A stretch of 64,000 nt of DNA from an uncultured Thermoanaerobaculia bacterium (GCA_964565225.1 CAZMEL010000001.1:1424-65423); one strand, 5' to 3'. Shown: positions 42,225-57,556, numbered from the stretch's first letter. The notes: generated by a model from the sequence alone, not told the origin. Translations and numbers: made by a program.

Positions 42225-42360
42225 ACAACCCTTCACGGGCCGCCGTGCTGTGTGAGCACCGGGCTCCGGAGTCGAGCTTCGGATGCAATTCGGAGCCCAG
42301 CTCTTTGGATCGATGCGACGAATTCCTGTCCTTCTTGGTAACTCGCAGGAGATTTTCGAT

Positions 42361-45300
42361 ATGACTGCTCAAACCCCTACTGATCAGAACTCCACTGATC
42401 GAAATGTCTCAGTGGATGATCTTCATCCGGACAGCATCGCCATCGTGGGCATGGCGTGTCGCTTTCCCGGTGCCGCCGATGTGGAGGCGTTCTGGCGCCT
42501 TCTGGTGGAAGGCCGGGAGGCGATCACGTTCTTTTCCGACGACGAGCTGAAAGAAGCCGGGGTGGATCCCGTCCATTTCGAGCGCGACAACTACGTCAAG
42601 GCCGGCGCCACGCTGGACGATGTGGAGAGCTTCGACGCAGGCTATTTCGACTATCCGGCGCGAGAAGCCGTGACCCTGGACCCCCAGCAGAGAATCTTCC
42701 TGGAGGTCGCCCAAACCGCTCTGGAGTCGTCCTGCCACGCCCCGGAGACCTTCGATGGTCTGATCGGTGTTTTCGCTGGCGGCGCCCAGAACAGCTACTA
42801 TGCGCGCAATCTGGCGGCCGACCCCATGCTGCTCACCACCCCCGAGGGCTTCCAGGCCCACCTGGGGAACGACAAGGATTATCTGGCCACCCGCGTGGCC
42901 TACAAGCTCAACCTCTCCGGGCCGGCGGTGACCGTGCAAACCGCTTGCTCGACCTCCTTGGCCGCCGTTCACCTGGCGGCCCAGTCTCTGCTGGCTGGTG
43001 AATGTGATCTGGCCCTGGCCGGCGGCGTGTCGGTCAAGGTGCCCCATCGGGTGGGTTACTTTCACCAGGACGGTATGCCGTTCTCGGCCGACGGCCATTG
43101 CCGTCCTTTCGATGCCACGGCCTCGGGCACCATCTTCGGCAGCGGTGCCGGCGCCGTGGTGCTCAGGCGCCTGGAAGATGCTTTGCGCGATGGTGATCCC
43201 ATCGATGCCGTGCTGCGCGGCTCGGCGATGAACAACGACGGCTCCTTGAAGATCGGCTTCACCGCGCCGAGCATCGATGGCCAGAGCAAGGTGATCGCCG
43301 AGGCCCTGGCCGTGGCGCGCGTGGATCCGCGAACCATCGGCCACGTGGAAGCCCACGGCACGGCCACCCCCTTGGGAGATCCCATCGAGGTGGACGCCCT
43401 CATCCGCTCTTTCGACGTGGACGAGAAAGGTTTTTGTGCCCTTGGCTCGGTAAAGAGCAACGTGGGCCACCTGGAAACCGCGGCCGGTGTGGCGGGCTTG
43501 ATCAAGTCCGTGCTCATGCTGAGCCGGCGGGTCTTGGTGCCGAGCCTGCACTTCGAGAGCCCGAATCCGGAGATTCCATTCGACGAGAGCCCGTTCTTCG
43601 TGTCTCGGGAGACCCGTCCCTGGGACCGCGATGGCGCACCGCGTCGGGCCGGCGTCTCGTCCTTCGGCATCGGCGGCACCAACGTGCACACAGTGCTCGA
43701 AGAGGCGCCGGCAGTGGCCGAAGATCCCGCTGCTGAGGCCGGACCCCAGGTGCTCACGCTGTCGGCCAAGACTCCTACGGCTCTGGACGCCCTGACCGCG
43801 GCCCTGGCGGAGCAGCTGGCTGCGGACGAAGAGCTCGATCTGGCGGCAGTAGCCCAGACCACCCGTGTCGGCCGGCGCTCCCTGCCGTGTCGCCGCATCC
43901 TGGTGGCCGAGAACAAGGCCGAGGCCGTGGACGCCCTGAAGAACCTCGATCCCAAGCGGGTCTTCACCTTCCAGGCGCCCAGGAGTGGCCGATCGGCGGC
44001 CTTCCTCTTCCCGGGCGGTGGCTCCCAATATGTGGACATGGGGCGGCAGCTCTATGCCCGCGAGCCGGTCTTTCGCCAGACATTGGACCACTGCTTCGAG
44101 CTGTTACGTCCGCTGATGGACGTGGATCCCCACCAGGTTCTCTACCCGTCCGCCGATCATCGGGACCAGGCGGTGGCTCAGCTCAAAGAGACGCCCATCG
44201 CCCTGCCGATCCTGTTCTCGGCAGAATACGCCCTGGCCCGGCTGCTGATCTCTTGGGGCATCGAGCCCGCTGCCATGATCGGCCATTCGAACGGTGAGTT
44301 CGTGGCCGCCACCCTGGCCGGCGTCTTCACTCTGGAGCAGGCCCTCGACGTGGTGGCCCGCCGCGCCGCGCTGATGACCCGTCTGCCCAAGGGTTCCATG
44401 CTCTCCCTCCCCCTGCCGGTGGAGGAGGTGCGGGAGATGGTGGGTGACGACTACTCCATCGCCGCGGTGAACAGCCCCGTCTCCTGCGTGGTGTCGGGCA
44501 CGGTGGAGCAGATCGACGCCCTGGAAGAGAAGCTGGCAAGCCGCGAGCTCGACACCCGCCGGCTGCACATCGCCGTAGGTGCTCACTCCAAGATGGCCGA
44601 TGGCATCGTCGACGATCTGGTGGCGATCGTGGCCGAGCACGACCTGAACGAGCCCACCATTCCCTTCGTGTCCAATGTCACCGGGGATTGGATCCAGCCC
44701 GGAGAGGCAACGGATCCGGCCTATTGGGGCCGCCACCTGCGCCACACCGTGCGTTTCCAAGAGGCGATCGGTCGCCTGATGGAAGACCCGACGCGGATCT
44801 TGATCGAGGTGGGTCCCGGGCAGGCGTTGGGCTCTCTGGCGCGCCAGAACCTGACCACCGGCGAGAATCGCACCCTTCTGGCCACCACTCGCCAGCGCCA
44901 CGACGAGGAGGTTTCCGACTCCGTCCTGCTGGCCGAGAACGTGGCCAAGGTGTGGTTGGTGGGCGGTGCCGTGGACTGGCGCGCAGTCTACGAAGAGCAA
45001 GGTCCGCGGCGTGCCCGCGTGGTCACCTATCCCTTCGAGCGTCGGCGTTATTGGATCGAGGCCCAGAAGAGCGACGCCGGATCCGGCGACCTGGCCGCGC
45101 GCATGCAGACCTGGATGGAGGCCGAGGGCAAAGTCCTGGACCAAGAGAAGTCCGGAGACGACCGCGCCGGCCTGCTGGTGGCCTATGTGGCCCCGCGCGA
45201 CGACATGGAGGAGCGAGTGGCCGACGTCTGGCGCCAATTCTTCGGTATCGACCAGGTGGGCGTGCACGACAACTTCTTCGAGCTGGGAGGCACCTCCCTG

Positions 45301-45525
45301 CTGGCCACTCAATTGGTCAACAGCCTGCAGAAAACTTTCAAGGTGGAGCTCGATGTACCCACCTTTATGCGCTCCGCCACCGTGGCCGAGCTGTCCGAGA
45401 CCTTGGTCCGTCTGCAAGACGAGGAAGAGACGGCCCAAGCCACGGCGGTGCTCGATCGCTTGGAGCAGATGAGTGAAGACGAGATCGCGGCTCTTCTGGC
45501 ACAGACCGAGATGGCCGAAGCTTGA
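42361..45525 (+). CDS. Type I PKS minimal module KS-AT-ACP (no reductive domains), 1054 aa. The AT has atypical motifs.
   Basis: Start taken at ATG 42361 (AGGAG 9 nt upstream). The track ATG at 42283 adds 26 AT3-rich codons that look non-coding. KS TACSTSL, HGTATPLGDPIE, NVGHLETAAG. AT FLFPGGGSQY, GHSNGE, VGAHS. ACP FFELGGTSLLATQL. Confidence 0.9.
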   Translation: MTAQTPTDQNSTDRNVSVDDLHPDSIAIVGMACRFPGAADVEAFWRLLVEGREAITFFSDDELKEAGVDPVHFERDNYVKAGATLDDVESFDAGYFDYPAREAVTLDPQQRIFLEVAQTALESSCHAPETFDGLIGVFAGGAQNSYYARNLAADPMLLTTPEGFQAHLGNDKDYLATRVAYKLNLSGPAVTVQTACSTSLAAVHLAAQSLLAGECDLALAGGVSVKVPHRVGYFHQDGMPFSADGHCRPFDATASGTIFGSGAGAVVLRRLEDALRDGDPIDAVLRGSAMNNDGSLKIGFTAPSIDGQSKVIAEALAVARVDPRTIGHVEAHGTATPLGDPIEVDALIRSFDVDEKGFCALGSVKSNVGHLETAAGVAGLIKSVLMLSRRVLVPSLHFESPNPEIPFDESPFFVSRETRPWDRDGAPRRAGVSSFGIGGTNVHTVLEEAPAVAEDPAAEAGPQVLTLSAKTPTALDALTAALAEQLAADEELDLAAVAQTTRVGRRSLPCRRILVAENKAEAVDALKNLDPKRVFTFQAPRSGRSAAFLFPGGGSQYVDMGRQLYAREPVFRQTLDHCFELLRPLMDVDPHQVLYPSADHRDQAVAQLKETPIALPILFSAEYALARLLISWGIEPAAMIGHSNGEFVAATLAGVFTLEQALDVVARRAALMTRLPKGSMLSLPLPVEEVREMVGDDYSIAAVNSPVSCVVSGTVEQIDALEEKLASRELDTRRLHIAVGAHSKMADGIVDDLVAIVAEHDLNEPTIPFVSNVTGDWIQPGEATDPAYWGRHLRHTVRFQEAIGRLMEDPTRILIEVGPGQALGSLARQNLTTGENRTLLATTRQRHDEEVSDSVLLAENVAKVWLVGGAVDWRAVYEEQGPRRARVVTYPFERRRYWIEAQKSDAGSGDLAARMQTWMEAEGKVLDQEKSGDDRAGLLVAYVAPRDDMEERVADVWRQFFGIDQVGVHDNFFELGGTSLLATQLVNSLQKTFKVELDVPTFMRSATVAELSETLVRLQDEEETAQATAVLDRLEQMSEDEIAALLAQTEMAEA

Positions 45526-45627
45526 TCGCTCGCTCGATCCGAAGACAGACCGAAAACCTTTCGCACGATTCGATGAACCCTTATCCATCCCAGTCGGAGC
45601 TGATGGACCGAAACCGAGGAACAGATC

Positions 45628-48600
45628 ATGACGAAAATTGCCGATAAGCTCAGGAATCTCTCCCCCGAAAAGCGCGCTCTCTTCGAGCGTTTGATGGCCG
45701 AAGAAAAGGCCAAGAAAGAGGCCGCTCTGGAAGCCTCGAAATTGGACATCCCCAACTTTCCGTCCGAGCCCGAGAAGCGCTACGAGCCCTTCCCGCTCAC
45801 CGACATCCAACAGGCGCAATGGTTCGGTCGCTCGGGTCTTTTCGAGCTCACCTCCGCGGCCCACGTCTACGTGGAATTCGACAGCGAGGGTCTGGACCTG
45901 GACCGTCTGGAGGAGGTGTGGAACGAGATCGTGAAGGAGAACGATCAGTTGCGCATGAAGGTGCTCGGCGACCTGCGCCAGGTGGTGCTCGAAGAGGTGC
46001 CGTACTACGAATTCAAGCGCATCGACCTCACCGGCAAGTCCGAGAAAGAGGTGGAAGAGAGCCTCGCCGAAACCCGCGCCGACATGGGCCATCAAATCCT
46101 GCCCGCCGATCAGTTCCCTATCTGGGAGGTACGGGCCTCGGTGATCGACGGCGGCCGCCTGCGCCTGCACGTGAGCTTCGATCTGATCGTGGGTGATGCC
46201 TGGAGCTTCCGGGTGCTCATGGATCACTGGGCCCAGCGCTACCACCACGGTGACGAGGCCAAGCGGGAGCCCGTGGACTACTCCTTCCGGGATTACGTGC
46301 ACGCCCTGGAAGCCTTGGAGGAAACCGAGGTCTTCCAGCGGGACCTGGCCTATTGGAAAGAGCAATTGGCCGTGTTGCCCAACCCGCCGGAGCTGCCCAT
46401 GGCCAAACAGCCGAGCGAGCTGGACGAGCATCGCTCCCTTCACTTCACCGATACCGTGGCCGCGAACGTGTGGTCCGAGCTCAAGGGTCGGATCAAAGAT
46501 CACCGATTGACCGCGTCGAACTTCTTCCTCGCCGCCTGGTCCGAGGTGGTCACGGTGTGGACCAAATCCCCCGAGTTCGCCCTCAACGTCACGGTCTTCA
46601 ACCGTCTGCCCGTGCACGAGGACGTGAACGCCGTGCTGGTGGGAGAGTTCAACTCCTTCTGCCTCTTCGGGGTCGACAACTCCGGCAAGCGTCCGTTCCA
46701 CGAGCGTGCCCTGGAGAAGCAGGAGAAGCTGTGGCGCCACATCGACCATCGTACGGTCAGCGGTGTCCGTCAGATGCGCGAGCTGGCACATATTCGCGGC
46801 ACCCAGAGCGGTGGCGCCCTGATGCCTGCGGTCTTCACCTCCACCCTGGCCCACCACGACAGCGAAGGCTGGTCGCCCTCGGTATTCCCGGGCGAATGGG
46901 TCTACGAGGTTTCGCAGACGCCCCAGGTGTGGATGGAGCATCACATCTGGGAGGACGAAGGCAAGCTCGTCCTGCACGTGGACGTGGTCGACGGTGTCTT
47001 TCCCGAGGGCATGTTCGCCGAGGTCTTCGCCGCCTACGTGCAGCTCCTCCACGAGCTGGCTCGAGATCCCGAGGCGTGGAATCGCACCGATGCCCGCCAC
47101 CTGGTGCCGGCCGAGCAGCTGCAGCTGCGGGCCGAGGTGAACAACACCGCCGCCGCCATCTCGGACGAGCTGATGCACGGCCTGATGCGCAAGCAAGCGG
47201 CGGAGCGGGGCGATACCACGGCCGTGATCTCGGCCCGCGGCAACCTCACCTACGCGGAGCTGGACTCGCGCTCCAATCGGGTGGGCCGCTTCCTGCGGGA
47301 GGCCGGCGCCGAGCCCAACGAGCTGGTGGCCGTGGTCATGGAGAAGGGCTGGGAGCAGGCCGTGGCCGCCTACGGCATCCAGAAGTCGGGCGCCGCCTAC
47401 CTCCCCATCGAGCCGGACGTGCCGACGGACCGTCTGCATCACCTGCTGAGCGTGGGTGAGTGCAAATTGGCCCTCACCCAGAGCGAGCTGGTCGCCGAGC
47501 TTTCGTGGCCCGAGGGCGTGCAGGTCTTCGCCGTGGACGGCGACGCCTTCGACGGCGTCTCCGACGAGGCCCTGGAAGATGTCCAGGGCCCGGACGATAT
47601 CGCCTACGTGATCTTCACCTCCGGCTCCACCGGGACCCCCAAGGGTGTGGTGATCTCCCACCGCGGTGCGGTGAACACCATCCTCGACATCAACGAGCGT
47701 TTCCAGGTGGACGCCGAGGATCGGGGCCTGGCCTTGGCGGCCATGGGCTTCGACCTGTCGGTCTACGACCTCTTCGGCACCCTGGCGGCGGGCGGCTCGG
47801 TGGTGATCCCGTCCAAGCAGGATCCGGATCCCTCGGAGTGGGTGCAGCTGATCGCCGAGCACGGCGTCACCCTGTGGAATTCCGTGCCGGCGCTCATGGA
47901 GATGTTGGTCACCCACGCGGAGGGCACCAAGACCGAGCTGCCTTCCTCCCTGCGTCTGGCCCTGCTCTCCGGCGATTGGATTCCTGTGAGCTTGCCCGGA
48001 CGCCTCTCCGCGGTGCGCGAAGGGATCGAGGTGATCAGCCTGGGTGGCGCCACCGAGGCTTCCATCTGGTCGATCCTGCATCCGATCGTGGCGGTGGATC
48101 CGGAGTGGAAGAGCATCCCCTACGGCAAGCCGATGAAGAATCAGACCTTCCACGTGCTGAACGGCGATCTGAAGCCGTGCCCCACCTGGACCACGGGCGA
48201 TCTCTACATCGGTGGCGTGGGTGTGGCCCTGGGCTATTGGCGGGACGACGAGAAGACCGCGGCGTCCTTCTTGGAGCATCCCGAGACCGGCGAGCGGCTC
48301 TACCGCACCGGCGATCTGGGCCGCTACCTGCCCAACGGTGAGATCGAGTTCCTCGGCCGTGAGGACAACCAGGTGAAGGTGCGGGGCTTCCGCATCGAGC
48401 TGGGTGAGATCGAGGAGAACCTCAACAAGGTAGACGGCATCGCGGCGTCCGTGGTGGCGGCCCTCGGGGCGAGCGACAACCGTCGCCTGGTGGCCTATGT
48501 CGTGCCCGCGGACGGCACCGAGCTGGACACCGAGGCCGTGCAAAAGGCCCTGGGCGCCAAGCTGCCGGAGTACATGCTGCCCCAGAGCTACGTCGCCATG

Positions 48601-48987
48601 GAGGCCCTGCCCCTGACCGCCAACGGCAAGGTGGATCGCAAGAATCTGCCGGCTCCCGAGGATGTGGGCAAGGAGAACGTCTACGTGGCGCCGCGCAACG
48701 AGGCCGAGGAGAAGCTAGCCCAGCTGTGGCAAGAAGTGCTGGACGTGGAAAAGGTGGGTGTTTACGACGACTTCTTCGAGCTGGGTGGCAACTCCCTCCT
48801 GGCCAATCAGCTCCTCTTCCGGGTCCACGACGCCTTCGGCATCGAGCTGCCCCTCTCCAAGCTCTTCGAAGCCACCACCATCGACAAGGTGGCTGTGCTC
48901 TTGGAAGAGACCTTGATCGCCCAGATGGAGGGTATGAGTGAGGAGGAGATCCAACGCCTGCTGGAAGAGGAGGCGGTAGGTGTCTGA
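45628..48987 (+). CDS. NRPS module Cy-A-PCP, Cys-type A domain, 1119 aa.
   Basis: Cy FPLTDIQQAQWFGR and SFDLIVGDAWS near 46180. A domain FDLSVYDLFGTLAAG, TLWNSVPALMEM, LLSGDWIPVSLP, GGATEASIWSILH; by eye this fits the Cys code DLYNLSLIWK. No Ox insertion. PCP FFELGGNSLLANQL. Confidence 0.95.
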   Translation: MTKIADKLRNLSPEKRALFERLMAEEKAKKEAALEASKLDIPNFPSEPEKRYEPFPLTDIQQAQWFGRSGLFELTSAAHVYVEFDSEGLDLDRLEEVWNEIVKENDQLRMKVLGDLRQVVLEEVPYYEFKRIDLTGKSEKEVEESLAETRADMGHQILPADQFPIWEVRASVIDGGRLRLHVSFDLIVGDAWSFRVLMDHWAQRYHHGDEAKREPVDYSFRDYVHALEALEETEVFQRDLAYWKEQLAVLPNPPELPMAKQPSELDEHRSLHFTDTVAANVWSELKGRIKDHRLTASNFFLAAWSEVVTVWTKSPEFALNVTVFNRLPVHEDVNAVLVGEFNSFCLFGVDNSGKRPFHERALEKQEKLWRHIDHRTVSGVRQMRELAHIRGTQSGGALMPAVFTSTLAHHDSEGWSPSVFPGEWVYEVSQTPQVWMEHHIWEDEGKLVLHVDVVDGVFPEGMFAEVFAAYVQLLHELARDPEAWNRTDARHLVPAEQLQLRAEVNNTAAAISDELMHGLMRKQAAERGDTTAVISARGNLTYAELDSRSNRVGRFLREAGAEPNELVAVVMEKGWEQAVAAYGIQKSGAAYLPIEPDVPTDRLHHLLSVGECKLALTQSELVAELSWPEGVQVFAVDGDAFDGVSDEALEDVQGPDDIAYVIFTSGSTGTPKGVVISHRGAVNTILDINERFQVDAEDRGLALAAMGFDLSVYDLFGTLAAGGSVVIPSKQDPDPSEWVQLIAEHGVTLWNSVPALMEMLVTHAEGTKTELPSSLRLALLSGDWIPVSLPGRLSAVREGIEVISLGGATEASIWSILHPIVAVDPEWKSIPYGKPMKNQTFHVLNGDLKPCPTWTTGDLYIGGVGVALGYWRDDEKTAASFLEHPETGERLYRTGDLGRYLPNGEIEFLGREDNQVKVRGFRIELGEIEENLNKVDGIAASVVAALGASDNRRLVAYVVPADGTELDTEAVQKALGAKLPEYMLPQSYVAMEALPLTANGKVDRKNLPAPEDVGKENVYVAPRNEAEEKLAQLWQEVLDVEKVGVYDDFFELGGNSLLANQLLFRVHDAFGIELPLSKLFEATTIDKVAVLLEETLIAQMEGMSEEEIQRLLEEEAVGV

Positions 48988-50467
48988 GCTCGCCACCCGC
49001 CGCAGTCGTCTGACAGCGGCTCAGCGTGCGTTGCTCGCAAAGCGACTGCGGGGTCAGGAGAGCAAGGCGGCAGGACAATCGCCCGCCGCCTTGCCCACCC
49101 TCGAGCCCGATTCCGCGGCCGCTCTGGAGCCATTCCCGCTGCTGGACGCCCAAGCCCTTCTGTGGCGCGGACGCAACGGCGAGCGAGAGCTGGGCGGCGT
49201 GTCACCCCACGTGTACCTGGAGGCGGAGCGGTCGGAGCTGGATCTGGCGCGTTTCGAAAGCACGTTCCAAGCCCTGGTTCGGCGCCACCCCATGTTGCGG
49301 GCCGTGGTCCGCGACGGTCGCCAGGTGGTGCTGGGCGAGGTGCCGGACTACACGGTGAAAGTGTTCGACTTGCGTGAGGAAACGCCGGTGGAGCAGGAAC
49401 GCCGTCTGTCCGTGATCCGCGAGCGCATGTCCCACAGCGAACGATGTCCGGACTCGTGGCCGCTCTTCGAGGTGCGGGTCACACGTTTGGCCGCCGACCG
49501 CTTCCGTATCCATGCGGATTTCGACCTTCTGCCCATGGATCTGCCGAGCCTGGAGTTCCTCTGCCTGGAATGGCGCAAGCTCTACGAAGGGCAGGGTCTT
49601 CCCGATGTGCCATTCGCTTTCCGCGACTATGCGATCACCTGCGAACGCTTCAAATCGGCGGAGCTCTATCGCCGGTCCCTGAAGCATTGGCAGGAGCGCT
49701 TGCCGCAGCTACCGCCGGCCCCGGATCTTCCCTTGGCGCGGGATCCCCGGAGCATCACCCGGCCGCGCTTCGTTCGTTGGGCCGCAGAAATGCCGGCGGC
49801 GGAGTGGGGGCGGATCAAGGAGTGTGCCGCGGCCGAGGGTTTGACTCCGTCCGTGGTGCTCATGGCCGCGTTCGGCGATGTCTTGGCCGTGGCGGGAGCG
49901 GGTCGCCGCTTCACCCTCGGTTCCACCCTCTTCAATCGTTTGCCGGTGCATCCGCGGGTGATGGAGGTTCTGGGGCAGTACACATCCACCAGCTTGACCG
50001 AGGTGGACGTGGATGCGCATGGCACCTTCCTCGACCGTTGTCGACACCTCCAAGAGCAGCTCTGGAAGGATCTGGAGCACGGCTATGTGGATGCCTCCGC
50101 CCTGCTTGCCGAGCAACGACGGAAGGCCGGCGAGGACAGACCGGTGACGCCGGTGATTTTCACCAGCGCCCTGGCTCACTTCGAGGAAGCCGGAGACGTG
50201 CCTCCCACCCGCTGGCTCGGCGAGCCTTGTCACGCCGTGGCAGAGCGGGCCGAAACCTGGATGGAGCATTTGGTGCTGGAGAACGCCGGCACCCTGGAGT
50301 ATTCCTGGGACGTGGTGGAAGGGCTTTTCCCGGACCACCTGATCTCGAATCTCTTCGACCTTTACGGGCAGGCACTGGAGCGTCTCGCCGAGTCCGCCGA
50401 GGTGTGGACCCGGCGGGCGGACCCCATGGATCTGTGGCCTTCGGCCACGGTGCTCGCCTCTTGCTGA
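48980..50467 (+). CDS. Free-standing heterocyclization (Cy) domain protein, 495 aa, with no A or PCP domain.
   Basis: A GTG start overlaps the end of the preceding gene by 8 nt. Cy hallmarks PFPLLDAQALLWRGR and HADFDLLPMDLPS (DxxxxDxxS) near 49520. The length equals one C/Cy domain. Confidence 0.85.
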   Translation: MSELATRRSRLTAAQRALLAKRLRGQESKAAGQSPAALPTLEPDSAAALEPFPLLDAQALLWRGRNGERELGGVSPHVYLEAERSELDLARFESTFQALVRRHPMLRAVVRDGRQVVLGEVPDYTVKVFDLREETPVEQERRLSVIRERMSHSERCPDSWPLFEVRVTRLAADRFRIHADFDLLPMDLPSLEFLCLEWRKLYEGQGLPDVPFAFRDYAITCERFKSAELYRRSLKHWQERLPQLPPAPDLPLARDPRSITRPRFVRWAAEMPAAEWGRIKECAAAEGLTPSVVLMAAFGDVLAVAGAGRRFTLGSTLFNRLPVHPRVMEVLGQYTSTSLTEVDVDAHGTFLDRCRHLQEQLWKDLEHGYVDASALLAEQRRKAGEDRPVTPVIFTSALAHFEEAGDVPPTRWLGEPCHAVAERAETWMEHLVLENAGTLEYSWDVVEGLFPDHLISNLFDLYGQALERLAESAEVWTRRADPMDLWPSATVLASC

Positions 50468-50553
50468 GGTGGATGCATTCTTGAAGACGAACGGATTGCA
50501 TAGAACCTTTCGATACCGACCGATAGACAACGACCTACTACACGGAGAGTCCC

Positions 50554-53500
50554 ATGTCAGCCGTGATCACAGAAGAATTGAAAGATAGAAAACAAAAGTT
50601 GAGCTCCGCTCAGCTGGCCTTGTTGCAAAAGCGCCTACGGGGTGAGATGGAGCAGGTCAAGCCCATCGAGCCGGACGTCGAAAATCTTTTCGAGCCGTTC
50701 CCCATGACCGAGATGTGTGAGGCCCAATGGATGGGTCGCAACGAAGCCTACGAGCTGGGTGGGGTTTCGGCCCACGCCTACGCCGAGATGTTCGACGGCC
50801 CCATGGATATCGAGGCCTTCGAGCGCGCCTGGAACACCCTGGTGGACCACTACGAGATGTTTCGCGCCATCGTGGGTAAGGACGGTCAATACCGCATCCT
50901 GCCCCGCGACGAGGTGGAACCCTACAAGGTGGAGGTGGTGGACCTGCGCCAGAAGTCCCAAGAGGAGAAGGACGCCTACCTGGCCGAGGTGCGGGACGAG
51001 TGGCGCCGGGAGATCATGCCCGGCGACGAGTGGCCCCTGTTCAAGTTCCGCGCCTCGATCATCGAGGACGACCACATCCGCCTGCACGCCAGTCTGGATC
51101 TCTTGATCACCGACATCGGCAGCTTGCAGCGCATCGGTCGCCAGCTCACCAAGCTCTACGAAGATCCGAGCTACGACCTGGGCGAGCCCACGGAGCTGTC
51201 GTTCCGCGACTACAACATGGCGGTCACCGCCTTCCGCAAGCATCCGCTCTACGAGAAGTCGGAGCAGTATTGGCTGTCCCGCCTGGACACCCTACCGCCG
51301 GCCCCGGACATGCCCGTGGCGCGGGATCCCGAGAAGGTGGAGTACCCCTATTTCACCCACGACCGGCGGATCATCCCCGCAGATATCTGGCAGAAATTCC
51401 AGGAGCGGTCGCGCAAGTTTGGCCTGACGCCGGACGTCACCATGAACGCGGTCTATGCCGACATCGTGGCCACCTGGGCCAAGCGCCAGACCTTTACCCT
51501 GAATGTGCTGTCGTTCAAGCGCCTGCCCATCCATCGGGACGTCAACAAGTTGGCGGGCAACTTCGGCTCCACCATTCTCCTGGAGGTGAGCGATTGGGGT
51601 GGCCGCCCGTTCGTGGACCGGGCCAAGGGCCTGCACTCGCAATTGCTCAAGGACCTGGACCATTGGTTCTACTCCGGCGTCACCATGTTGCGTGAGCTGA
51701 ACCGCCACAAGGGCGGCGCCCGCGGCGCGTCCATGCCCGTGGTCTTCGCCTCCACCCTAAACTACTCGGTGGAGGGCACCCTGCTCGACTCCGAGAACTT
51801 CTGGGACAAGTACATGACCCAGCTCTACCTGCAAACGCCGCAGGTGTGGCTGGACCATCAGATCGCCGAGGACGACGGCGAGCTGCACCTGGAGTGGGAT
51901 CGAGTGGAAGAGCTCTTCCCCGAGGGCATGACCGCAGACATGCTCGACGCCTACGAAAATCTGGTCACCTACCTGGCGGAGAGCGATGATCCGTGGGTGG
52001 CTTCGAGTCGCCGTCACGTTCTGCCCGAGGCCCATCGGGCGGCCCACAGCGAGCTCAACTCGACCGATGGGGCGGTGTCCGACGAGCTGTTGCACACCCT
52101 TTTCGCCCGTCAAGCCGAGGAGCGGCCGGACCAAAAGGCCGTGGTCACCGATTCGCGCATCCTGAGCTACGCCGAGGTGGACGAGATGTCCAATCAGGTG
52201 GCCCATTGGCTCGTGGACCAAGGCGTGAAGCCCAATCGTTTCGTGGCCCTGGCCATGAAGAAGGGTTGGGAGCAGGTGGTGGCCGCCCTGGCGGTGCACA
52301 AGGCCGGGGCCGCTTACCTGCCGGTGGATCCGGACACGCCGACGGAGCGTTTGGCCTACTTGCTGGAGAACGCCGGTGCGACCCTGGTTCTCACCCAAGA
52401 GGACTTGGCGAGCGAGATCACCTGGCCCGAGGGTGTGGAGCATCTGGCCATGGACGGTGATCTGTCGTCCCTCTCCACAGATGCCCTCGACACCGTGCAG
52501 GGCCCGGACGACATCGCCTACATGATCTACACCTCGGGCTCCACCGGTCGTCCCAAGGGCGTGGTGATCGATCACCGCGGCGCGGTGAACACGATCCTCG
52601 ATATCAACGAGCGTTTCGGCATCGGTGCCGAGGACGCGGTGCTCGGCATCTCGGCCATGAGCTTCGACCTTTCGGTCTACGACCTCTTCGGCACCCTGGC
52701 CGCTGGCGCCACCCTGGTGCTGCCCAAGGAGCTGAAGACGCCGGATCCGGCCTACTGGGCGGAGCTGGTACAGCGCGAGAACGTCACCGTTTGGAACTCC
52801 GTGCCGGCCCTGATGGAGCTGGTGACCGAATATGTGGAGAGCCATTCCAAAGCGGCCGACACTCTCGGCTCCCTGCGTCTGGCCCTGCTGTCGGGCGATT
52901 GGATCCCGGTCTCTCTGCCCGATCGTCTGCGCGCCGTGGCCGAGAACGTAAAGGTGGTGAGCTTGGGCGGTGCCACCGAGGCGTCCATCTGGTCGATCCT
53001 GCACGAGGTCGACGCGGTGGATCCGGAGTGGTCGAGCATCCCCTACGGGCGTCCGATGAAGAACCAGCGCTTCTACGTGCTCGACGATTACCTCGATCCC
53101 AAGCCCTTCTGGGTGCCCGGCGACCTCTACATCGGCGGCATCGGGGTGGCGCGGGAGTACTGGGGCGACGAGGAGAAGACCCGGGCGTCGTTCATCATTC
53201 ACCCGGAATCCGGCGATCGCCTCTACAAGACCGGCGATCTGGGATTTCTGCATCCGGACGGGTACATCGTCTTCCTCGGTCGTGAGGATCTGCAGGTGAA
53301 GGTGCGGGGTTTCCGTATCGAGCTGGGGGAAATCGAGGCCCAGATCGCGAGCCATCCGGCGGTGGAATCCGCCGTGGTGGTTGCCATGGGTGCCGACAGT
53401 GAGACCCGCCGCCTGGTGGCCTACGTGGTGGCCGTAGAAGGGGAGTCCGTCGATGCCGAGACCATCACGGCCTACGCCGCCGAGCGGCTGCCCGAGTACA

Positions 53501-53940
53501 TGTTGCCGGCCAATGTGCAGGTGATCGAGACCCTGCCCCTCACCCCCAACGGCAAGGTGGACCGGCGGTTCCTCGCCGATCCCCAATCCCTGGAGCAGTG
53601 GCAGAAGAGCAAGGTCTACGTGGCTCCGCGCACCGAGACCGAAACCGAGGTGGCGGCCATCTGGGCGTCCATGCTCGACCTGGAGCGAGTGGGTGTCGAA
53701 GACAACTTCTTCGAGCTCGGCGGCACCTCTCTGTTGGTGAACCAGATGGCGGCGCGAATCTACGACGCTTTCGGCATCGAGCTGTCCATGGGCATCGTTT
53801 TCGAGAGCCCCACGGTGACCGCCATGGCCGAGGCCATCGACGCCGCCCTGGAGAACCCGGACCTGCAGCAGGCGGACGACTCCATGGCTGTGGAGGATCT
53901 GGAGGCGGAAGCCGCCCTCGATCCCAGCCTCGGCGTCTAG
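50554..53940 (+). CDS. NRPS module Cy-A-PCP, Cys-type A domain, 1128 aa.
   Basis: Cy FPMTEMCEAQWMGR and HASLDLLITDIGS near 51100. A domain FDLSVYDLFGTLAAG, TVWNSVPALMEL, LLSGDWIPVSLP, GGATEASIWSILH. PCP FFELGGTSLLVNQM. Long nearly identical nucleotide stretches are shared with gene 45628..48987. Confidence 0.95.
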   Translation: MSAVITEELKDRKQKLSSAQLALLQKRLRGEMEQVKPIEPDVENLFEPFPMTEMCEAQWMGRNEAYELGGVSAHAYAEMFDGPMDIEAFERAWNTLVDHYEMFRAIVGKDGQYRILPRDEVEPYKVEVVDLRQKSQEEKDAYLAEVRDEWRREIMPGDEWPLFKFRASIIEDDHIRLHASLDLLITDIGSLQRIGRQLTKLYEDPSYDLGEPTELSFRDYNMAVTAFRKHPLYEKSEQYWLSRLDTLPPAPDMPVARDPEKVEYPYFTHDRRIIPADIWQKFQERSRKFGLTPDVTMNAVYADIVATWAKRQTFTLNVLSFKRLPIHRDVNKLAGNFGSTILLEVSDWGGRPFVDRAKGLHSQLLKDLDHWFYSGVTMLRELNRHKGGARGASMPVVFASTLNYSVEGTLLDSENFWDKYMTQLYLQTPQVWLDHQIAEDDGELHLEWDRVEELFPEGMTADMLDAYENLVTYLAESDDPWVASSRRHVLPEAHRAAHSELNSTDGAVSDELLHTLFARQAEERPDQKAVVTDSRILSYAEVDEMSNQVAHWLVDQGVKPNRFVALAMKKGWEQVVAALAVHKAGAAYLPVDPDTPTERLAYLLENAGATLVLTQEDLASEITWPEGVEHLAMDGDLSSLSTDALDTVQGPDDIAYMIYTSGSTGRPKGVVIDHRGAVNTILDINERFGIGAEDAVLGISAMSFDLSVYDLFGTLAAGATLVLPKELKTPDPAYWAELVQRENVTVWNSVPALMELVTEYVESHSKAADTLGSLRLALLSGDWIPVSLPDRLRAVAENVKVVSLGGATEASIWSILHEVDAVDPEWSSIPYGRPMKNQRFYVLDDYLDPKPFWVPGDLYIGGIGVAREYWGDEEKTRASFIIHPESGDRLYKTGDLGFLHPDGYIVFLGREDLQVKVRGFRIELGEIEAQIASHPAVESAVVVAMGADSETRRLVAYVVAVEGESVDAETITAYAAERLPEYMLPANVQVIETLPLTPNGKVDRRFLADPQSLEQWQKSKVYVAPRTETETEVAAIWASMLDLERVGVEDNFFELGGTSLLVNQMAARIYDAFGIELSMGIVFESPTVTAMAEAIDAALENPDLQQADDSMAVEDLEAEAALDPSLGV

Positions 53941-54051
53941 AACGTCGCCACCCACATGAGCCCGGGGGCGCCTTCTAGCGGCTCCGGGCTCCTTTCCCCG
54001 TTCGTCCCCCGGGACGCTCTTGGGGAAGCCTCGTCCCAAGGAGACGAAAAC

Positions 54052-55239
54052 ATGGCCGAAAAGCCCGATTTCAAAAGCTTCGAGCTGAATCCGAATCCCC
54101 GAGCCGTGCTGCTCACCGGTGCCACCGGTTTCCTCGGCGCCTTCCTGCTCCGGCAGCTCTTGGACCTCACCGAGGCCAAGGTGTATTGCCTGGTGCGGGC
54201 CGCCACTTTCTGGGAAGCGGAAGAGCGGTTGATCCGCAATCTCAAGCACTTCAAGTGCTGGGACGAAAAAGACGCTCCGCGCATCCAGCCGGTGGTGGGG
54301 GATCTGTCCAGGCCCCTGCTCAACTTGTCGGAGCGGGATTTCAAGCGCCTGGCCGCCAAGGTGGACGCCCTCTACCACAACGGCGCCTTCGTCAATTTCA
54401 TTCACCCCTATGCGCGCCTCCGGGCGGCCAACGTCCAGGGTACCCAAGAGATGGTGCGCCTGGCGGTGACCGAGAAGGTGAAGCCTCTGCATTACACCTC
54501 CACCTTGCGCATTTTCGGCAACTGGGCCGGCGAGGGCGGCGTGGTGCGCGAGACCGACCGAGCCCAGCAGAGCCAGGTGATTTCCAGCGGCTATTCCCAG
54601 AGCAAGTGGGTGGCCGAGCGCATGGTGCACAATGCCGGCGAGGGAGGTGTGCCCTTCACCGTCTTTCGTCCGGGCATGGTCACCGGCGACACGGTGAACG
54701 GCATGGCCAACTTCGACGACATCGTGGGCCGCATGATCAAAGGCTGCATCCAGATGGGGCAGGCTCCCGAGAAGGACATGCTGCTGGACTTCACGCCTGC
54801 GGACTGGGCGACTCGGGCCATGGTCAAGCTGACTCTGGACCCGAGGGCCCTGGGAGGCACGTACCACCTGGTGACGCCCCATCCGATCTCGTGGAACGAG
54901 GTCGTGGAACACGTGCGGGCTCTGGGCTATTCCCTGGAGCGGGTGGCCTACGGCCCGTGGCTCGAAGATCTCAAGAAGGCGGCCCAGACCGGCACGCCCG
55001 AGAGCAACGCCTTGATTCCCCTGCTGTCGTATTTCGCCGAGGAGATGCCCGACGAGGTGGCCAACCGGCGCTTCGACTGCAGCGCCTTGCTCGGTCTTCT
55101 GGACGGTGAGGATGCGGAATGCCCGCGGGTGGATCTGCCGCTTCTCAAGACCTATTTCCAGGCCTACATCACCGAGGGCTTCCTCGAGCCGCCGCCGGTG
55201 GGCGAGCTGGCTCGCCGCTCCTTGGTGGGTGTGGCCTGA
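54052..55239 (+). CDS. Free-standing NRPS-type thioester reductase (R domain, SDR fold), about 395 aa.
   Basis: ATG 54052 is preceded by AAGGAGA; the track start at 53956 is an extension. NAD(P) fold LLTGATGFLGAFLL, catalytic YSQSK, and the long C-terminal substrate lobe typical of terminal R domains. Confidence 0.85.
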   Translation: MAEKPDFKSFELNPNPRAVLLTGATGFLGAFLLRQLLDLTEAKVYCLVRAATFWEAEERLIRNLKHFKCWDEKDAPRIQPVVGDLSRPLLNLSERDFKRLAAKVDALYHNGAFVNFIHPYARLRAANVQGTQEMVRLAVTEKVKPLHYTSTLRIFGNWAGEGGVVRETDRAQQSQVISSGYSQSKWVAERMVHNAGEGGVPFTVFRPGMVTGDTVNGMANFDDIVGRMIKGCIQMGQAPEKDMLLDFTPADWATRAMVKLTLDPRALGGTYHLVTPHPISWNEVVEHVRALGYSLERVAYGPWLEDLKKAAQTGTPESNALIPLLSYFAEEMPDEVANRRFDCSALLGLLDGEDAECPRVDLPLLKTYFQAYITEGFLEPPPVGELARRSLVGVA

Positions 55240-55250
55240 GGGGGAATGTG

Positions 55251-56051
55251 ATGAACGCCACGGCCACGGCGAGACGACCCGCGATGGGCTCTTGCTTCAC
55301 CTGTGTGACTTCCAATCCACTGGCATTCCTGAGGGTTTTCTGTCTGCCCTTTGCCGGTGGATCGGCCACGGTTTTCCGCGAATGGCACCGCAAGCTCACA
55401 CCGGCCGTAGAGGTGGTGCCCGTGGAGATTCCGGGTCGCGGAACCCGCTTCAAAGAGCCGCCGATCTCGGACCTCGTGGAGCTGGTGAGTCTCCTGGCGG
55501 ATCAGATCGAAGACCATGTGGACTCCCTACCCTATGTGTTTTTCGGCTACAGCATGGGTGGGCACATCGCCTACGAGCTGACCCGGGAGCTGCGTCGGCG
55601 GGGCCGGTCCCTGCCGGTGCATCTCTTCGTGGCCGCGGCCATCGCGCCGCGGGGTCGCAAGCCCGAGCCGCCCTTGCATTCCATGAGCGACGAGGAGCTG
55701 ATCGCCGAGCTCGAGGCCTTCGACGGAACACCGCCCGGGGTGCTCGACAACCCCAACATCATGGGCACGCTGATGCCCGGAATCCGAGCCGATTTTGCCC
55801 TCAGCGAAACCTATTCCTACGTGTCGGAAGCACTCCTGGAGATGCCCTTGACCGTTTACGGCGGTGAGAGAGATCACGCGGTGCTGCGTTCGGATCTGGA
55901 GCTGTGGGAGAGAGAGACCCGCGGTCCGTTCCAGCTGGAGATGCTACCCGGAGGCCATTTCTTCCTCTTCGACTGTGAGAAGGAGCTGTTGCGCAAGCTG
56001 TCGGCAGCCTTTCACGGGGTGGCCAAGCGGGTGGCCCTCACCGGTGGGTGA
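55251..56051 (+). CDS. Type II (editing) thioesterase, alpha/beta hydrolase, 266 aa.
   Basis: Start taken at ATG 55251; the track start at 55119 overlaps the R gene. FCLPFAGGSA oxyanion region, GYSMGG nucleophile elbow, and a C-terminal GGHFF block with the catalytic His. Confidence 0.85.
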   Translation: MNATATARRPAMGSCFTCVTSNPLAFLRVFCLPFAGGSATVFREWHRKLTPAVEVVPVEIPGRGTRFKEPPISDLVELVSLLADQIEDHVDSLPYVFFGYSMGGHIAYELTRELRRRGRSLPVHLFVAAAIAPRGRKPEPPLHSMSDEELIAELEAFDGTPPGVLDNPNIMGTLMPGIRADFALSETYSYVSEALLEMPLTVYGGERDHAVLRSDLELWERETRGPFQLEMLPGGHFFLFDCEKELLRKLSAAFHGVAKRVALTGG

Positions 56052-56186: not shown

Positions 56187-57401
56187 ATGTCGAGCTTGCT
56201 TGTCGCTGCGGCGAAAGCCCGCCGTGCTCAAAAACGTCCGGCGGCACCGCCCCTGACGATGCTGTTGGACGAAGAGCAGGATTTTCAGAAAGAAATCCGT
56301 CGCTTTGCCGAAAAAGAGATCAAGCCTCAGGTGTCCGACATGGACACCGCCGCGGAAATGCCTCGTGGTCTGATCGACCAGCTCTTCGAGCTCGGCGTGT
56401 TGGGATCCGAGGTGCCGGACGCTCTCGGCGGTGCCGGCGCCTCCTTCTTCTCCGGCATCCTGGCGATCGAAGAGCTGGCCAAGGTGGATCCGGCAGTAGC
56501 GGTCTTGGTCCACGTGCACAATGTCCTGGTTACCAAGACCCTGCTCAAATGGGGCTCGGACGACCTGAAGGCCCGTTACCTGCCCTTGCTCACCGACGGC
56601 ACGGTGGCCGCCTACAGCCTGTCGGAAGCGGAATCGGGCAGTGATGCCTTCGCCATGAAATCCACGGCCGTGCGACGCGGTGACTATTTCGTCCTCGACG
56701 GGCGCAAGCTGTGGTGCACCAGCGCCGCCGAAGCCGGTCTCTTCCTGATCTTCGTCAACGCCGCGCCGGAGAAGGGGGTTCGGGGCATCACGGGTTTCCT
56801 GGTGGAGCGAGACACTGAGGGCCTACAGATCGGCCGGCGGGAGGACAAGATGGGCATCCGCGCCAGCTCTACCTGCGAGCTGGTGCTCGACGGCGTCAAG
56901 GTGCCAGCGAAGCAAATGCTCGGCACCCTGGGTAGCGGTCAGGATGTGATCACCGACGGACTGGTGAAAGGCCGAATCGGCATCGCGGCCCAGATGGTCG
57001 GTCTGGCGCAGGGGGCCCTGGACGCCGCCGTTGCCTATGCTCATGAACGGCGCCAGTTCGGCCAACGGATCTCGTCCTTCCAGGGCGTCCACTTCCCTTT
57101 GTCCGAGATCGCCACCGAGATCGAGGCGGCGCGTCTCCTGGTATACAACGCCGCCCGTCTGTTGGAGACCGGGGCGCCCCATTTCAAGCTCTCGACCCCT
57201 ACGTCTATGGCCAAGCTCTTCGCCTCCAGAGTGGCGGAGCGGGCAGCGTCTCAAGCGGTAGAAACCCTGGGAGGCAATGGATTCAGCAAGGAATATCCGG
57301 TGGAGAAATTCTACCGCGACGCCAAGATCGGTCAGATCTACGAAGGCACGTCCAATATTCAGTTGCGCACCATCGCCACCGGTCTCTTCCAACGACTGTG
57401 A
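56187..57401 (+). CDS. Acyl-CoA dehydrogenase (short/branched-chain type), 404 aa.
   Basis: Typical ACAD blocks YSLSEAESGSDAFAMKSTA, the GIRASSTCEL region, and C-terminal YEGTSNIQLRTIA with the catalytic Glu context. A possible internal start lies at MLLDEEQDF. Confidence 0.9.
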   Translation: MSSLLVAAAKARRAQKRPAAPPLTMLLDEEQDFQKEIRRFAEKEIKPQVSDMDTAAEMPRGLIDQLFELGVLGSEVPDALGGAGASFFSGILAIEELAKVDPAVAVLVHVHNVLVTKTLLKWGSDDLKARYLPLLTDGTVAAYSLSEAESGSDAFAMKSTAVRRGDYFVLDGRKLWCTSAAEAGLFLIFVNAAPEKGVRGITGFLVERDTEGLQIGRREDKMGIRASSTCELVLDGVKVPAKQMLGTLGSGQDVITDGLVKGRIGIAAQMVGLAQGALDAAVAYAHERRQFGQRISSFQGVHFPLSEIATEIEAARLLVYNAARLLETGAPHFKLSTPTSMAKLFASRVAERAASQAVETLGGNGFSKEYPVEKFYRDAKIGQIYEGTSNIQLRTIATGLFQRL

Positions 57402-57520
57402 GCCCTGTTTTCTATGGAACCCGATTTCGTGAGTCGATCCCCTCATGCTTGCGGTTCTCCTTTCGATTCTTTTTTGGATCCCGGAGCTTGAGCCTAGTGC
57501 TAGACCCGAAACCAATGAGT

Positions 57521-57536
57521 GGGGGCTCGAGCCCCC
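57521..57536. repeat. Perfect 16-bp GC palindrome GGGGGCTCGAGCCCCC in the ACAD / FG-GAP intergenic region. Hairpin-forming; a possible factor-dependent terminator or recognition site.
   Basis: Seen in the sequence; there is no downstream T-tract. Confidence 0.3.
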
Positions 57537-57556
57537 CACCCCTAGAAGGAGAAGAA

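Follow-up and report, generated by a model that had tools for sequence, protein, structure and literature searches.

We describe a gene for a free-standing heterocyclization (Cy) domain in a 64,000-nucleotide stretch of DNA from an uncultured Thermoanaerobaculia bacterium (GCA_964565225.1 CAZMEL010000001.1:1424-65423). We call the whole stretch the window, and all positions are counted from its first letter. The gene sits in a cluster of polyketide synthase (PKS) and nonribosomal peptide synthetase (NRPS) genes. It is real, it is separate from its neighbors, and it encodes a Cy-fold protein, which we refer to as the lone Cy. Upstream and downstream of it lie two cysteine modules, module 2 and module 3, and further upstream is module 1, which carries an oxidase (Ox) domain (Table 1). 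With a probability of about 0.5, and by analogy with known systems, the lone Cy would be a docked auxiliary subunit of module 2, itself a predicted pyridine-forming module, where it would recruit or position an acyl-CoA-dehydrogenase-like flavoprotein (ACAD) and perhaps assist in ring closure. Docking, recruitment of the flavoprotein and the pyridine chemistry are the parts of this reading that we infer.

A separate gene for a Cy-fold protein

An earlier, sequence-only reading of the window had described a 495-aa protein consisting of a Cy domain with no adenylation (A) or peptidyl carrier protein (PCP) domain, and this holds: Pfam gives just a Condensation match (E 9.3e-28). The motifs that it quoted are present, with PFPLLDAQALLWRGR at residues 51-65 and DLLPMDLPS at residues 182-190. 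As it also said, the GTG start overlaps the preceding NRPS gene by 8 nt; that gene (45628-48987) closes with GTA GGT GTC TGA, where the TGA is at 48985-48987. The choice of start codon is supported by an N-terminus that aligns from residue 1 with homologs starting with ATG. The two flanking genes are indeed Cy-A-PCP genes by Pfam, with DxxxxD motifs and, in both A domains, the Cys-type signature FDLSVYD / WNSVP / LLSGDW / SLGGATEASIWS.

Among solved structures, the best matches of the full-length sequence are all Cy domains: EpoB (E 5.7e-79, aligned over residues 40-476 of the lone Cy), BmdB-Cy2 (4e-70), the HMWP2 Cy domains, FmoA3 and PchE. An AlphaFold2 model has the full two-lobed Cy fold with a mean predicted local distance difference test score (pLDDT) of 87.3 and a predicted TM-score (pTM) of 0.85, and its residues 1-35 are modeled as helical with low confidence. 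When we searched with this model in Foldseek, ranks 1-19 were Cy structures, and the superposition on BmdB-Cy2 had a root-mean-square deviation of 1.9 Å. A scan of 45400-50700 for promoters and terminators gave nothing above chance level, which is consistent with a single operon.

A frameshift might have split off a Cy domain that is truly fused in cis to a neighboring gene, and the sequence-only reading had named this as the finding that would overturn it. What speaks for such an artefact is the 8-nt overlap with an upstream gene in a different frame. However, an identical protein is called on two source assemblies, an ENA scaffold (456 kb) and a Logan contig, and a strong Shine-Dalgarno sequence stands ahead of the GTG. 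The junction between module 2 and the lone Cy also differs among the relatives introduced below: the overlap is again 8 nt in L006, there are gaps of 10 nt in L007 and 13 nt in L140, and in L001 the two genes share a frame and are nevertheless separated by an in-frame stop and a 6-nt gap. Every relative is stand-alone. We therefore rejected an assembly or sequencing artefact, the chance of which we put at next to nothing.

In a search of 5.8 billion proteins, the lone-Cy clade amounted to five clusters at 90% identity, all 478-497 aa long, with no fused form among the matches and a score drop from 718 bits to 524 bits at the next Cy. With just five such clusters, discrete Cy proteins are as uncommon as had been supposed.

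Occurrence and constant partners

The lone Cy is found as a separate gene of this size on seven contigs from at least four lineages, always directly after the A-PCP of a Cys module. Besides the window, these are a 3-kb contig from a close relative (L006), a Competibacteraceae metagenome-assembled genome (MAG; L001/L008), a JGI contig (L007), a Thermoanaerobaculia MAG (L044), an ENA metagenome holding a strain near-identical to L044 (L140), and an ENA contig full of frameshifts (L088), where the lone Cy is recognizable but broken, as are all genes there. We thus saw it in a Competibacteraceae genome, a Thermoanaerobaculia genome and unassigned metagenome contigs, and in no actinomycete.

Wherever the upstream region is visible, a Cy-A-Ox-PCP module and a protein with ketosynthase, acyltransferase and acyl carrier protein domains (KS-AT-ACP) precede the Cys module and the lone Cy. 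Two layouts follow. In the window, L006 and L044/L140 the lone Cy adjoins the Cy of module 3, and in L001, L007 and L088 no Cy-A-PCP follows and the next gene is the reductase. An ACAD, the reductase and a thioesterase (TE) were found in 5/5 clusters with a readable downstream region. Since the lone Cy is kept in three clusters without module 3, its constant partners are module 2 and the ACAD, and not module 3.

In a neighbor-joining tree the lone-Cy clade is monophyletic. We considered whether the lone Cy is a duplicate of the module-2 Cy, which the tree does not support, as the two clades are not sisters. A scan of GTDB genomes gave 80 loci, with a directly matched clade member in the Competibacteraceae locus only; L044 was found through its module-2 Cy. 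A scan of JGI metagenomes with the clade alignment gave 51 loci, all with canonical Cy domains, and no new clade members or ACADs among them, using a second pattern that is not specific to the clade. The profile search of representative proteins was dominated in its ranking by megasynthetases with several Cy domains, so it is uninformative about fusions, and its only single-domain matches were P0002 and P0007.

Active-site residues and rate of evolution

We mapped residue positions via EpoB and BmdB onto the residues named in PMC9547227, and our comparison set was 70 other Cy domains from the loci that we fetched. In HMWP2-Cy2, the cyclodehydration dyad is T1830/D1862, accompanied by a helper Gln, a latch (T1856-P-Q1858) and Y1505, and R1509 pairs with the first Asp of DxxxxD (PMC9547227). 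As for which catalytic residues the lone Cy retains, the answer is mixed. The dyad Thr (Thr395 in the window) is present in 5/5 aligned members of the lone clade and in 55/70 of the other Cy domains, and DxxxxDxxS has an invariant Ser and an invariant second Asp in the clade. The dyad Asp, on the other hand, is Asp in all but one of the 70 and is Glu in 5/5 aligned members of the lone clade (Glu429 in the window), as it also is in the broken L088 copy.

All five members have lost the latch Thr (61/70 in the other Cy domains) and the Asn of TLNxT (62/70), and have Gln or Pro in place of the Asp of GDFTS (53/70). The latch Gln (64/70) and the helper Gln (57/70) are each lost in four of the five, and the Z1 Tyr (57/70) is kept in two. 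The Arg and the first Asp of DxxxxD, found in 66/70 and 65/70 of the other domains, are lost together in the same three members. In the window copy, Leu replaces both the Z1 Tyr and the helper Gln, RAE replaces the latch TPQ, Gly the TLNxT Asn and GQYTS the GDFTS motif, and these positions are variable or lost across the clade. Of the 64 columns in which conservation among other Cy domains reaches at least 90%, the window copy retains 57, which equals the figure for the cluster's in-cis Cy domains. About 80 columns are invariant across the lone clade, which has its own motifs: FTSALAHFEE, QLWKDLEH, LPSLEFL and ENAGxLE. The lone Cy thus has the DxxxxDxxS motif and the full two-lobed fold of a Cy domain, and departs from one in its Thr-Asp dyad, its tunnel residues and its stand-alone placement.

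Two roles had been offered by the sequence-only reading, and neither fared well. Epimerization is unsupported because there is no HHxxxDG histidine: the lone Cy has DLLPMD instead of this motif with its catalytic His, and its nearest solved structures are Cy and not epimerization (E) domains. The lack of an HHxxxDG active site also sets the lone Cy apart from stand-alone condensation (C) domains of the VibH type. The other suggestion was that the lone Cy supplies cyclodehydration to a neighboring module. Against this, the lone Cy itself holds an altered site, with the dyad Asp changed to Glu in all members. The Cy of module 3 has no visible defect to make good, as it belongs to a natural subfamily (next section), and the lone Cy is kept in the three clusters in which no downstream Cy-A-PCP exists.

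Of the genes in the cluster, the lone Cy is under the weakest constraint, which is relaxed yet purifying. Between the window and L006, the ratio of non-synonymous to synonymous rates (omega, dN/dS) is 0.41 for the lone Cy (dN 0.44), 0.12 for the adjacent module-3 Cy (dN 0.10) and 0.21 for the module-2 PCP tail, with dS near saturation. The same pair is 54% identical in the lone Cy, while the two neighbors are 82% and 87% identical by BLAST segments and 76% and 87% identical by global alignments. Between L140 and L044, where dS is about 0.2 and unsaturated, omega is 0.174 for the lone Cy and 0.148 for module 1, compared with 0.049 for the module-2 Cy, 0.069 for the module-3 Cy, 0.075 for KS-AT-ACP and 0.068 for the reductase. 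Overall, the lone Cy changes at non-synonymous sites 2.5-4 times as fast as the neighboring Cy domains do. The TE and ACAD of L044 and L140 are 100% identical with dS = 0, and the adjacent genes have a dS of about 0.17-0.25. This suggests either recent recombination or a chimera from assembly or binning.

Variant Cy domains around the lone Cy

The Cy domain of module 2 (45628-47172) departs from the usual residue at no fewer than eight positions that are otherwise conserved. The dyad Asp is replaced by Glu in 4/4 orthologs, and further changes are Z1 Tyr to Gln, GDFTS to GEFNS, RHxML to (E/N)NxQL (ENDQL in the window) and DLEH to H(I/L)(D/E)H. It keeps DxxxxD, the TPQ of the latch and the Asn of TLNxT. 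Its identity across the orthologous clusters is 53-58%. We believe that a domain that is so strongly derived and yet conserved reflects changed chemistry and not decay. The change of Z1 Tyr to Gln is common only to this domain, the module-3 Cy and the Cy of a CaeA2-like protein from Micromonospora, which we return to below.

The Cy of module 3 (50554-52050) has GNFGS for GDFTS and FAS for FTS. We looked at the Thr to Ala change in FAS as a possible defect for which the lone Cy is needed, and rejected this, since the variant occurs together with GNFxS in 10-11 of 70 ordinary Cy domains. These domains form a subfamily with GNFxS and (A)ST motifs, which includes L063, L077 and L078 and in which the dyad Thr is not universal.

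The sequence-only reading had pointed to tandem Cy domains inside VibF and HMWP2. VibF is indeed a tandem case, with a division of labor between Cy1 and Cy2; the two Cy domains of HMWP2, however, belong to successive modules and are not known to form a tandem pair. AngN is a free-standing Cy-Cy protein, an example of Cy domains without A or PCP in the same polypeptide. The window resembles VibF and AngN in having more Cy units than acceptor modules, and one Cy unit may have lost part of the dual activity. It differs from both in that the lone Cy is a single Cy, persists in clusters with no second in-cis Cy after it, carries Glu at the dyad Asp position, and lies in a PKS-NRPS context with an ACAD. 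Unlike VibF, a complementary defect in the neighboring Cy domains is not visible: the changes in the lone Cy and the module-2 Cy are not complementary because both carry the same Asp to Glu change, and the Thr to Ala change of module 3 is a common one (11/70). It is possible that the lone Cy pairs with the module-2 Cy on one acceptor PCP.

The sole Asp to Glu change among the 70 other Cy domains is in L086 (9368-16957), from a Kutzneria sp. MAG. This locus has a cis tandem Cy-Cy-A-PCP-Ox-KS with a leinamycin-like layout. Its first Cy has Glu at the catalytic Asp and GPFIS for GDFTS, and its second Cy is canonical. As this is the only such case, it suggests that "extra" Cy units tend to carry Asp to Glu.

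Docking termini

Module 2 ends after its PCP in an acidic tail of the form (I/L)xQ(M/I)Exx(S/T)(D/E)EExxxLL, and the KS-AT-ACP protein ends alike. The lone Cy and module 3 begin with a basic helix, LSxxxxALLxKRLRG, and module 2 begins with a related LSxExRALxExL. Within the lone clade, A17, L18, L19, R22, L23, R24 and G25 are invariant. Where module 3 is missing, no protein other than the lone Cy offers that helix to the module-2 tail. From these termini we infer docking of the lone Cy on this tail beside the PCP, where it would be a non-covalent counterpart of the fusion of a PCP to the Ct unit described in the next section.

Resemblance to pyridine-forming systems

In the biosynthesis of the 2,2'-bipyridines caerulomycin and collismycin (PMC8149447), a KS-AT-ACP extends a heteroaryl-carbonyl starter, the ACAD-like flavoprotein CaeB1 (ColB1 for collismycin) acts in trans to dehydrogenate Cys-S-PCP, and an atypical Cy both forms the C-C bond at the C-beta of the cysteine and carries out pyridine closure. 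A unit called Ct is essential since it binds CaeB1, with a dissociation constant of about 0.5 uM. This unit follows the PCP in the same polypeptide and resembles a C domain, but without the catalytic His; the authors liken it to an X domain (PMC8149447). Karnamicin (PMC9838390) and oxazolismycin (PMC12308425) have the same core after a Cy-A-Ox-PCP azole module, which gives thiazolyl- and oxazolyl-pyridines, and also a type II TE. In the literature that we searched, the caerulomycin-type system is described in actinomycetes only, and with a fused Ct only.

The window has the same parts. As in CaeA2 and ColA2, a C-superfamily unit without the canonical catalytic set stands right after the PCP of a Cys module, with a KS-AT-ACP and a heteroaryl-carbonyl donor upstream and an ACAD-like flavoprotein and a type II TE alongside. 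The gene order is that of the Ct systems in the window, L001, L044, L088 and L140, and the ACAD and the type II TE co-occur with it. The alkyl chain, Cy-A-Ox-PCP, KS-AT-ACP, Cys module, ACAD and TE match karnamicin (KnmA3, KnmA2, KnmD, KnmA4) and oxazolismycin, so the predicted core is a 2-alkylthiazol-4-yl pyridine, and L088 uses FAAL-ACP loading like KnmA3. By this analogy, the KS-AT-ACP, the thiazole module and the ACAD point to pyridine formation of the caerulomycin/karnamicin type.

There are also differences. Unlike Ct, the lone Cy is a separate gene, and the KS-AT-ACP and Cy-A-PCP are separate as well, so that the equivalent of CaeA2 would be split into three proteins. Ct is a shortened C/E-like unit, whereas the lone Cy is a full-length Cy-type fold with DxxxxDxxS. 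Compared with karnamicin, the window cluster uses three PKS proteins for the alkyl chain and lacks both a Leu-adding C-A-PCP and an amidohydrolase. In their stead it has an optional Cy-A(Cys)-PCP together with a thioester reductase that stands free, and the Ct function is not fused. Neither pyridine hydroxylases nor methyltransferases were seen beside the window cluster.

Micromonospora loci L035 and L040 encode FAAL-ACP-Cy-A-PCP, KS-AT-ACP-Cy-A-PCP-Ct, an ACAD and a TE. Their CaeA2-like protein is collinear with CaeA2, with the motif Asp at 1168 and the PCP Ser at 2032 compared to D1165 and S2036. The Ct of these loci is 436 aa long, has SELVVDAGS for HHxxxDG, and matches E/C-type domains, with E domains as its best solved relatives. 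L087, from an Actinokineospora sp. MAG, is karnamicin-like and encodes A-PCP-R, an FAD mono-oxygenase, an ACAD, a TE, a second FAD mono-oxygenase and FAAL-ACP-Cy-A-Ox-PCP. As its NRPS ends in A-PCP-R, reductive release occurs in an actinomycete relative as well. We also looked at L029, L063, L077 and L078 as CaeA2-like candidates, because they have KS-AT-ACP-Cy-A-PCP followed by about 280 C-terminal residues, but these residues are thioesterases (GWSMGG) and we rejected them.

The window ACAD shares 60-62% identity with those of L001 and L044/L140 and 44% with the L088 one. With the ACADs of the caerulomycin/karnamicin-like loci of Micromonospora and Actinokineospora, it shares 52-54%. In about 130 other Cy loci with 10-kb flanks we found just three ACAD matches, at 33-35% identity; ACADs at least 43% identical to the window ACAD were confined to clusters with a lone Cy or of the Ct type. 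In the regions seen, every cluster with an ACAD has one of two units, a fused Ct (L035, L040) or a lone Cy, and never both. This mutual exclusion is compatible with functional equivalence and does not prove it. The lone Cy is not an ortholog of Ct, so a shared function would mean that a Cy domain was recruited to it independently.

The X domain of glycopeptide NRPSs (PDB 4tx2, 4tx3) offers a similar case, in that a C-fold unit that lost catalysis recruits oxidative enzymes in trans to a PCP-bound substrate, as the lone Cy may do by analogy. It is a distant fold match at the level of the superfamily, with a TM-score of about 0.66 compared to about 0.8 for Cy domains, and X is fused and recruits P450s. 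The in-cis Cy of TlnC, in thiolactomycin biosynthesis, has an Asn-Asp dyad and performs sulfur transfer, which is non-canonical cysteine chemistry (preprint 10.1101/2024.12.18.629141). The lone Cy also has an altered Thr-Asp dyad, but it is the Asp that is changed, to Glu, where TlnC has its Thr replaced, and the lone Cy is free-standing.

Proposed role and alternatives

In the pathway that we propose, the PKS genes would make an alkyl chain, which module 1 (Cy-A-Ox-PCP) would turn into a 2-alkylthiazole-4-carbonyl thioester and the KS-AT-ACP would extend by one malonyl unit to a beta-keto thioester. Module 2 would load cysteine, and the ACAD-like flavoprotein would dehydrogenate Cys-S-PCP by analogy with CaeA2/CaeB1 and KnmA2/KnmD. 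The atypical module-2 Cy would then form the C-C bond between the dehydrogenated Cys and the beta-keto thioester, followed by pyridine closure. The lone Cy would take the place of Ct without a covalent link, with its LSxxxRALLxKRLRG helix on the acidic module-2 tail and adjacent to the PCP. From this site it would bring in or position the flavoprotein, perhaps with some help in ring closure. In the window, module 3 would add one further cysteine to give a thiazoline, and the free-standing reductase would release an aldehyde or an alcohol.

Several points weigh against this proposal. The product of these clusters is predicted from the genes alone. For CaeA2, ColA2, KnmA2 and CaeB1, the Micromonospora and Actinokineospora loci served as proxies. 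Homology between the lone Cy and the Micromonospora Ct reaches the superfamily level only (hmmsearch E 4e-4 on fragments, hhalign probability 28%), so position and co-occurrence are all that the equivalence of lone Cy and Ct can draw on. The N-terminal helix of the lone Cy recurs in module 3 of the window and of L044/L140, so the lone Cy could compete or pair with that module. We had also considered Asp to Glu as a mark of a pyridine-forming Cy, and rejected this because the Micromonospora CaeA2-like Cy keeps its Asp, so the change in module 2 is no general mark of pyridine formation. Finally, the invariant Glu, the dyad Thr, the second Asp and Ser, and an omega far below 1 fit retained catalysis equally well.

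This last point leads to the possibility that the lone Cy is a catalyst in trans that shares ring formation with the in-cis Cy of module 2 or 3, in the manner of Cy1 and Cy2 of VibF, which we hold to be plausible but somewhat unlikely. One unit would form the bond to cysteine, and closure and dehydration of the pyridine or thiazoline ring would fall to the other. The invariant residues, the 57 of 64 conserved positions kept and the purifying omega of 0.17-0.41 all speak for it, and the module-2 Cy shares the Asp to Glu change, so the two may be a matched pair. The first Cy of the unrelated cis tandem in Kutzneria also has Glu and GPFIS, and dyad variants mark altered chemistry in TlnC (10.1101/2024.12.18.629141). 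However, the latch Thr and the TLNxT Asn are lost in 5/5, the latch Gln in 4/5, and 3/5 lack the Z1 Tyr and also the Arg-Asp salt bridge; the non-synonymous rate is several times that of the adjacent catalytic Cy domains, and partnership with module 3 is impossible in the three clusters that lack it. A rather unlikely extension of the same idea would have the lone Cy, active with a Thr-Glu dyad, and the Glu-bearing module-2 Cy form a two-component "pyridine synthase", in which one makes the C-C bond to dehydrocysteine and the other performs the N-cyclodehydration. It would have evolved from a thiazoline-forming Cy, independently of the actinomycete Cy and Ct, and its product would be a tridentate thiazole-pyridine-thiazoline scaffold.

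The lone Cy could also have the auxiliary role that we propose, as a recruiter or scaffold only, in a pathway without a pyridine, where modules 2 and 3 make ordinary thiazolines and the ACAD oxidizes a PCP-bound thiazoline or cysteinyl group, for example to a thiazole. By Pfam, modules 2 and 3 have no Ox domain and module 1 has one, the relatives of the ACAD oxidize carrier-bound substrates (PigA- and RedW-type models score 218-223 bits on it), and the module-2 Cy keeps DxxxxD, TPQ and the TLNxT Asn. We nevertheless consider this quite unlikely. The complete CaeA2-like set is there, from the heteroaryl donor and the KS-AT-ACP without reduction to the Cys module, the extra C-superfamily unit, the ACAD and the TE. 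In addition, the ACAD is 52-54% identical to the karnamicin/caerulomycin-like ones, the module-2 Cy is derived at many conserved positions, and we know of no precedent for an ACAD that oxidizes thiazolines. That the lone Cy is an ordinary condensing Cy that adds an extra unit, with Cys reloaded on the module-2 PCP or a soluble amino-thiol or amine as acceptor in the manner of VibH, would suit its complete Cy fold, its placement after a PCP and the three clusters where only the reductase follows. It has no acceptor carrier protein of its own, though, its acceptor-side Z1 Tyr, Arg and latch Gln are not conserved and its constraint is relaxed, which makes this very improbable. Finally, the fastest non-synonymous rate in the cluster and the loss of conserved catalytic residues might suggest a functionless, decaying remnant of a lost module. 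A remnant is hard to reconcile with a reading frame that is intact in 6/6 good-quality assemblies from distant lineages, an omega well away from 1, the roughly 80 invariant columns with their clade-specific motifs, and a confident model, and we find it more improbable still.

Significance

If the lone Cy is indeed an auxiliary subunit of a pyridine-forming module, then pyridine chemistry of the caerulomycin/karnamicin type would reach beyond actinomycetes to Competibacteraceae, Thermoanaerobaculia and related uncultured bacteria. Recruitment of a flavoprotein to a carrier protein would then have been solved independently, by a full-length free-standing protein derived from a Cy domain in one case and by the fused, truncated C/E-like Ct in the other. 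Because the auxiliary protein is separate and soluble, it could be deleted, titrated or mutated without touching the synthetase, which would suit it to the study of how Cy catalysis is lost or re-tuned and how oxidases are recruited in trans. The predicted scaffold is an undescribed alkyl-thiazolyl-pyridine, with or without a thiazoline and with a reduced terminus, and it would be related to natural products that inhibit angiotensin-converting enzyme and bind metals. Automated annotation would read the lone Cy as an additional heterocyclization step and so mispredict the product.

The window cluster and its surroundings

The features of the cluster are listed in Table 1.

Table 1. Features of the lone-Cy gene and of the cluster around it in the window.
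Feature	Position	Strand	Basis and remarks
Three type I PKS genes (loading and three fully reducing DH-ER-KR modules), predicted to make the alkyl chain	16286-37878	+	Pfam
Module 1: TubC-type docking domain, Cy, A with inserted Ox, PCP; EpoB-like, predicted thiazole-forming	37875-42224	+	Pfam, motifs; canonical Cy motifs
KS-AT-ACP without reductive domains	42283-45525	+	Pfam; directly upstream of module 2 also in L001, L044, L088 and L140
Module 2: atypical Cy, A (Cys code), PCP	45628-48987	+	Pfam, Cys code
C-terminal tail of module 2, IAQMEGMSEEEIQRLLEEEAVGV, presumed docking tail	48916-48984	+	Same tail type conserved in orthologous clusters
AGGAGG, Shine-Dalgarno-like, 6 nt before the GTG	48968-48973	+	Read from sequence
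Lone Cy-fold protein, 495 aa	48980-50467	+	Open reading frame and translation, Pfam, match to solved Cy domains, AlphaFold2 model, monophyletic stand-alone clade
N-terminal helix of the lone Cy, LTAAQRALLAKRLRG, residues 11-25, presumed docking element	49010-49054	+	Predicted helical, low confidence
DLLPMDLPS (DxxxxDxxS), residues 182-190	49523-49549	+	Sequence, alignment
FTSALAHFEE, residues 394-403, holds dyad Thr395; clade-specific motif	50159-50188	+	Alignment
Glu429, at the cyclodehydration Asp position (EpoB D449, HMWP2-Cy2 D1862)	50264-50266	+	Alignment
Module 3: Cy (GNFGS/FAS subfamily), A (Cys code), PCP; not present in every cluster of the family	50554-53940	+	Pfam, Cys code
Stand-alone thioester reductase	53956-55239	+	TIGR01746, 332 bits; kept in all the clusters
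Type II thioesterase	55119-56051	+	Pfam Thioesterase; 39% identical to the TE beside the Micromonospora CaeA2-like gene
ACAD, YEGTSN catalytic motif kept; presumed CaeB1/KnmD counterpart	56187-57401	+	Pfam

The longest open reading frame for the TE begins about 120 nt before the reductase gene ends (55119-55239), so its true start is probably downstream of 55119. The first PKS (16286-24661) has one KS, two AT and two ACP matches together with DH-ER-KR. This is a mixed loading and first-extension module, which we take to be of a type known from myxobacterial synthases.

Just upstream of the PKS genes are an MMPL transporter (10653-13085) and a LolA-like lipoprotein carrier (13807-14730), and the L088 cluster is flanked by an MMPL gene and a TE fused to a LolA-like domain. 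Since such genes lie beside both clusters, they are probably an export system for a lipophilic product.

Downstream, a gene for an FG-GAP/ASPIC-UnbV protein (57398-59611) overlaps the stop codon of the ACAD by 4 nt and is followed by one for an SGL/NHL (ScyE-like) beta-propeller protein (59733-61769). Homologs of these two proteins were not found in the related clusters. Near the other end of the window, on the minus strand at 2506-4080, a gene for a phage-tail-sheath-like protein belongs to a contractile injection system or a prophage remnant and is unrelated to the cluster.

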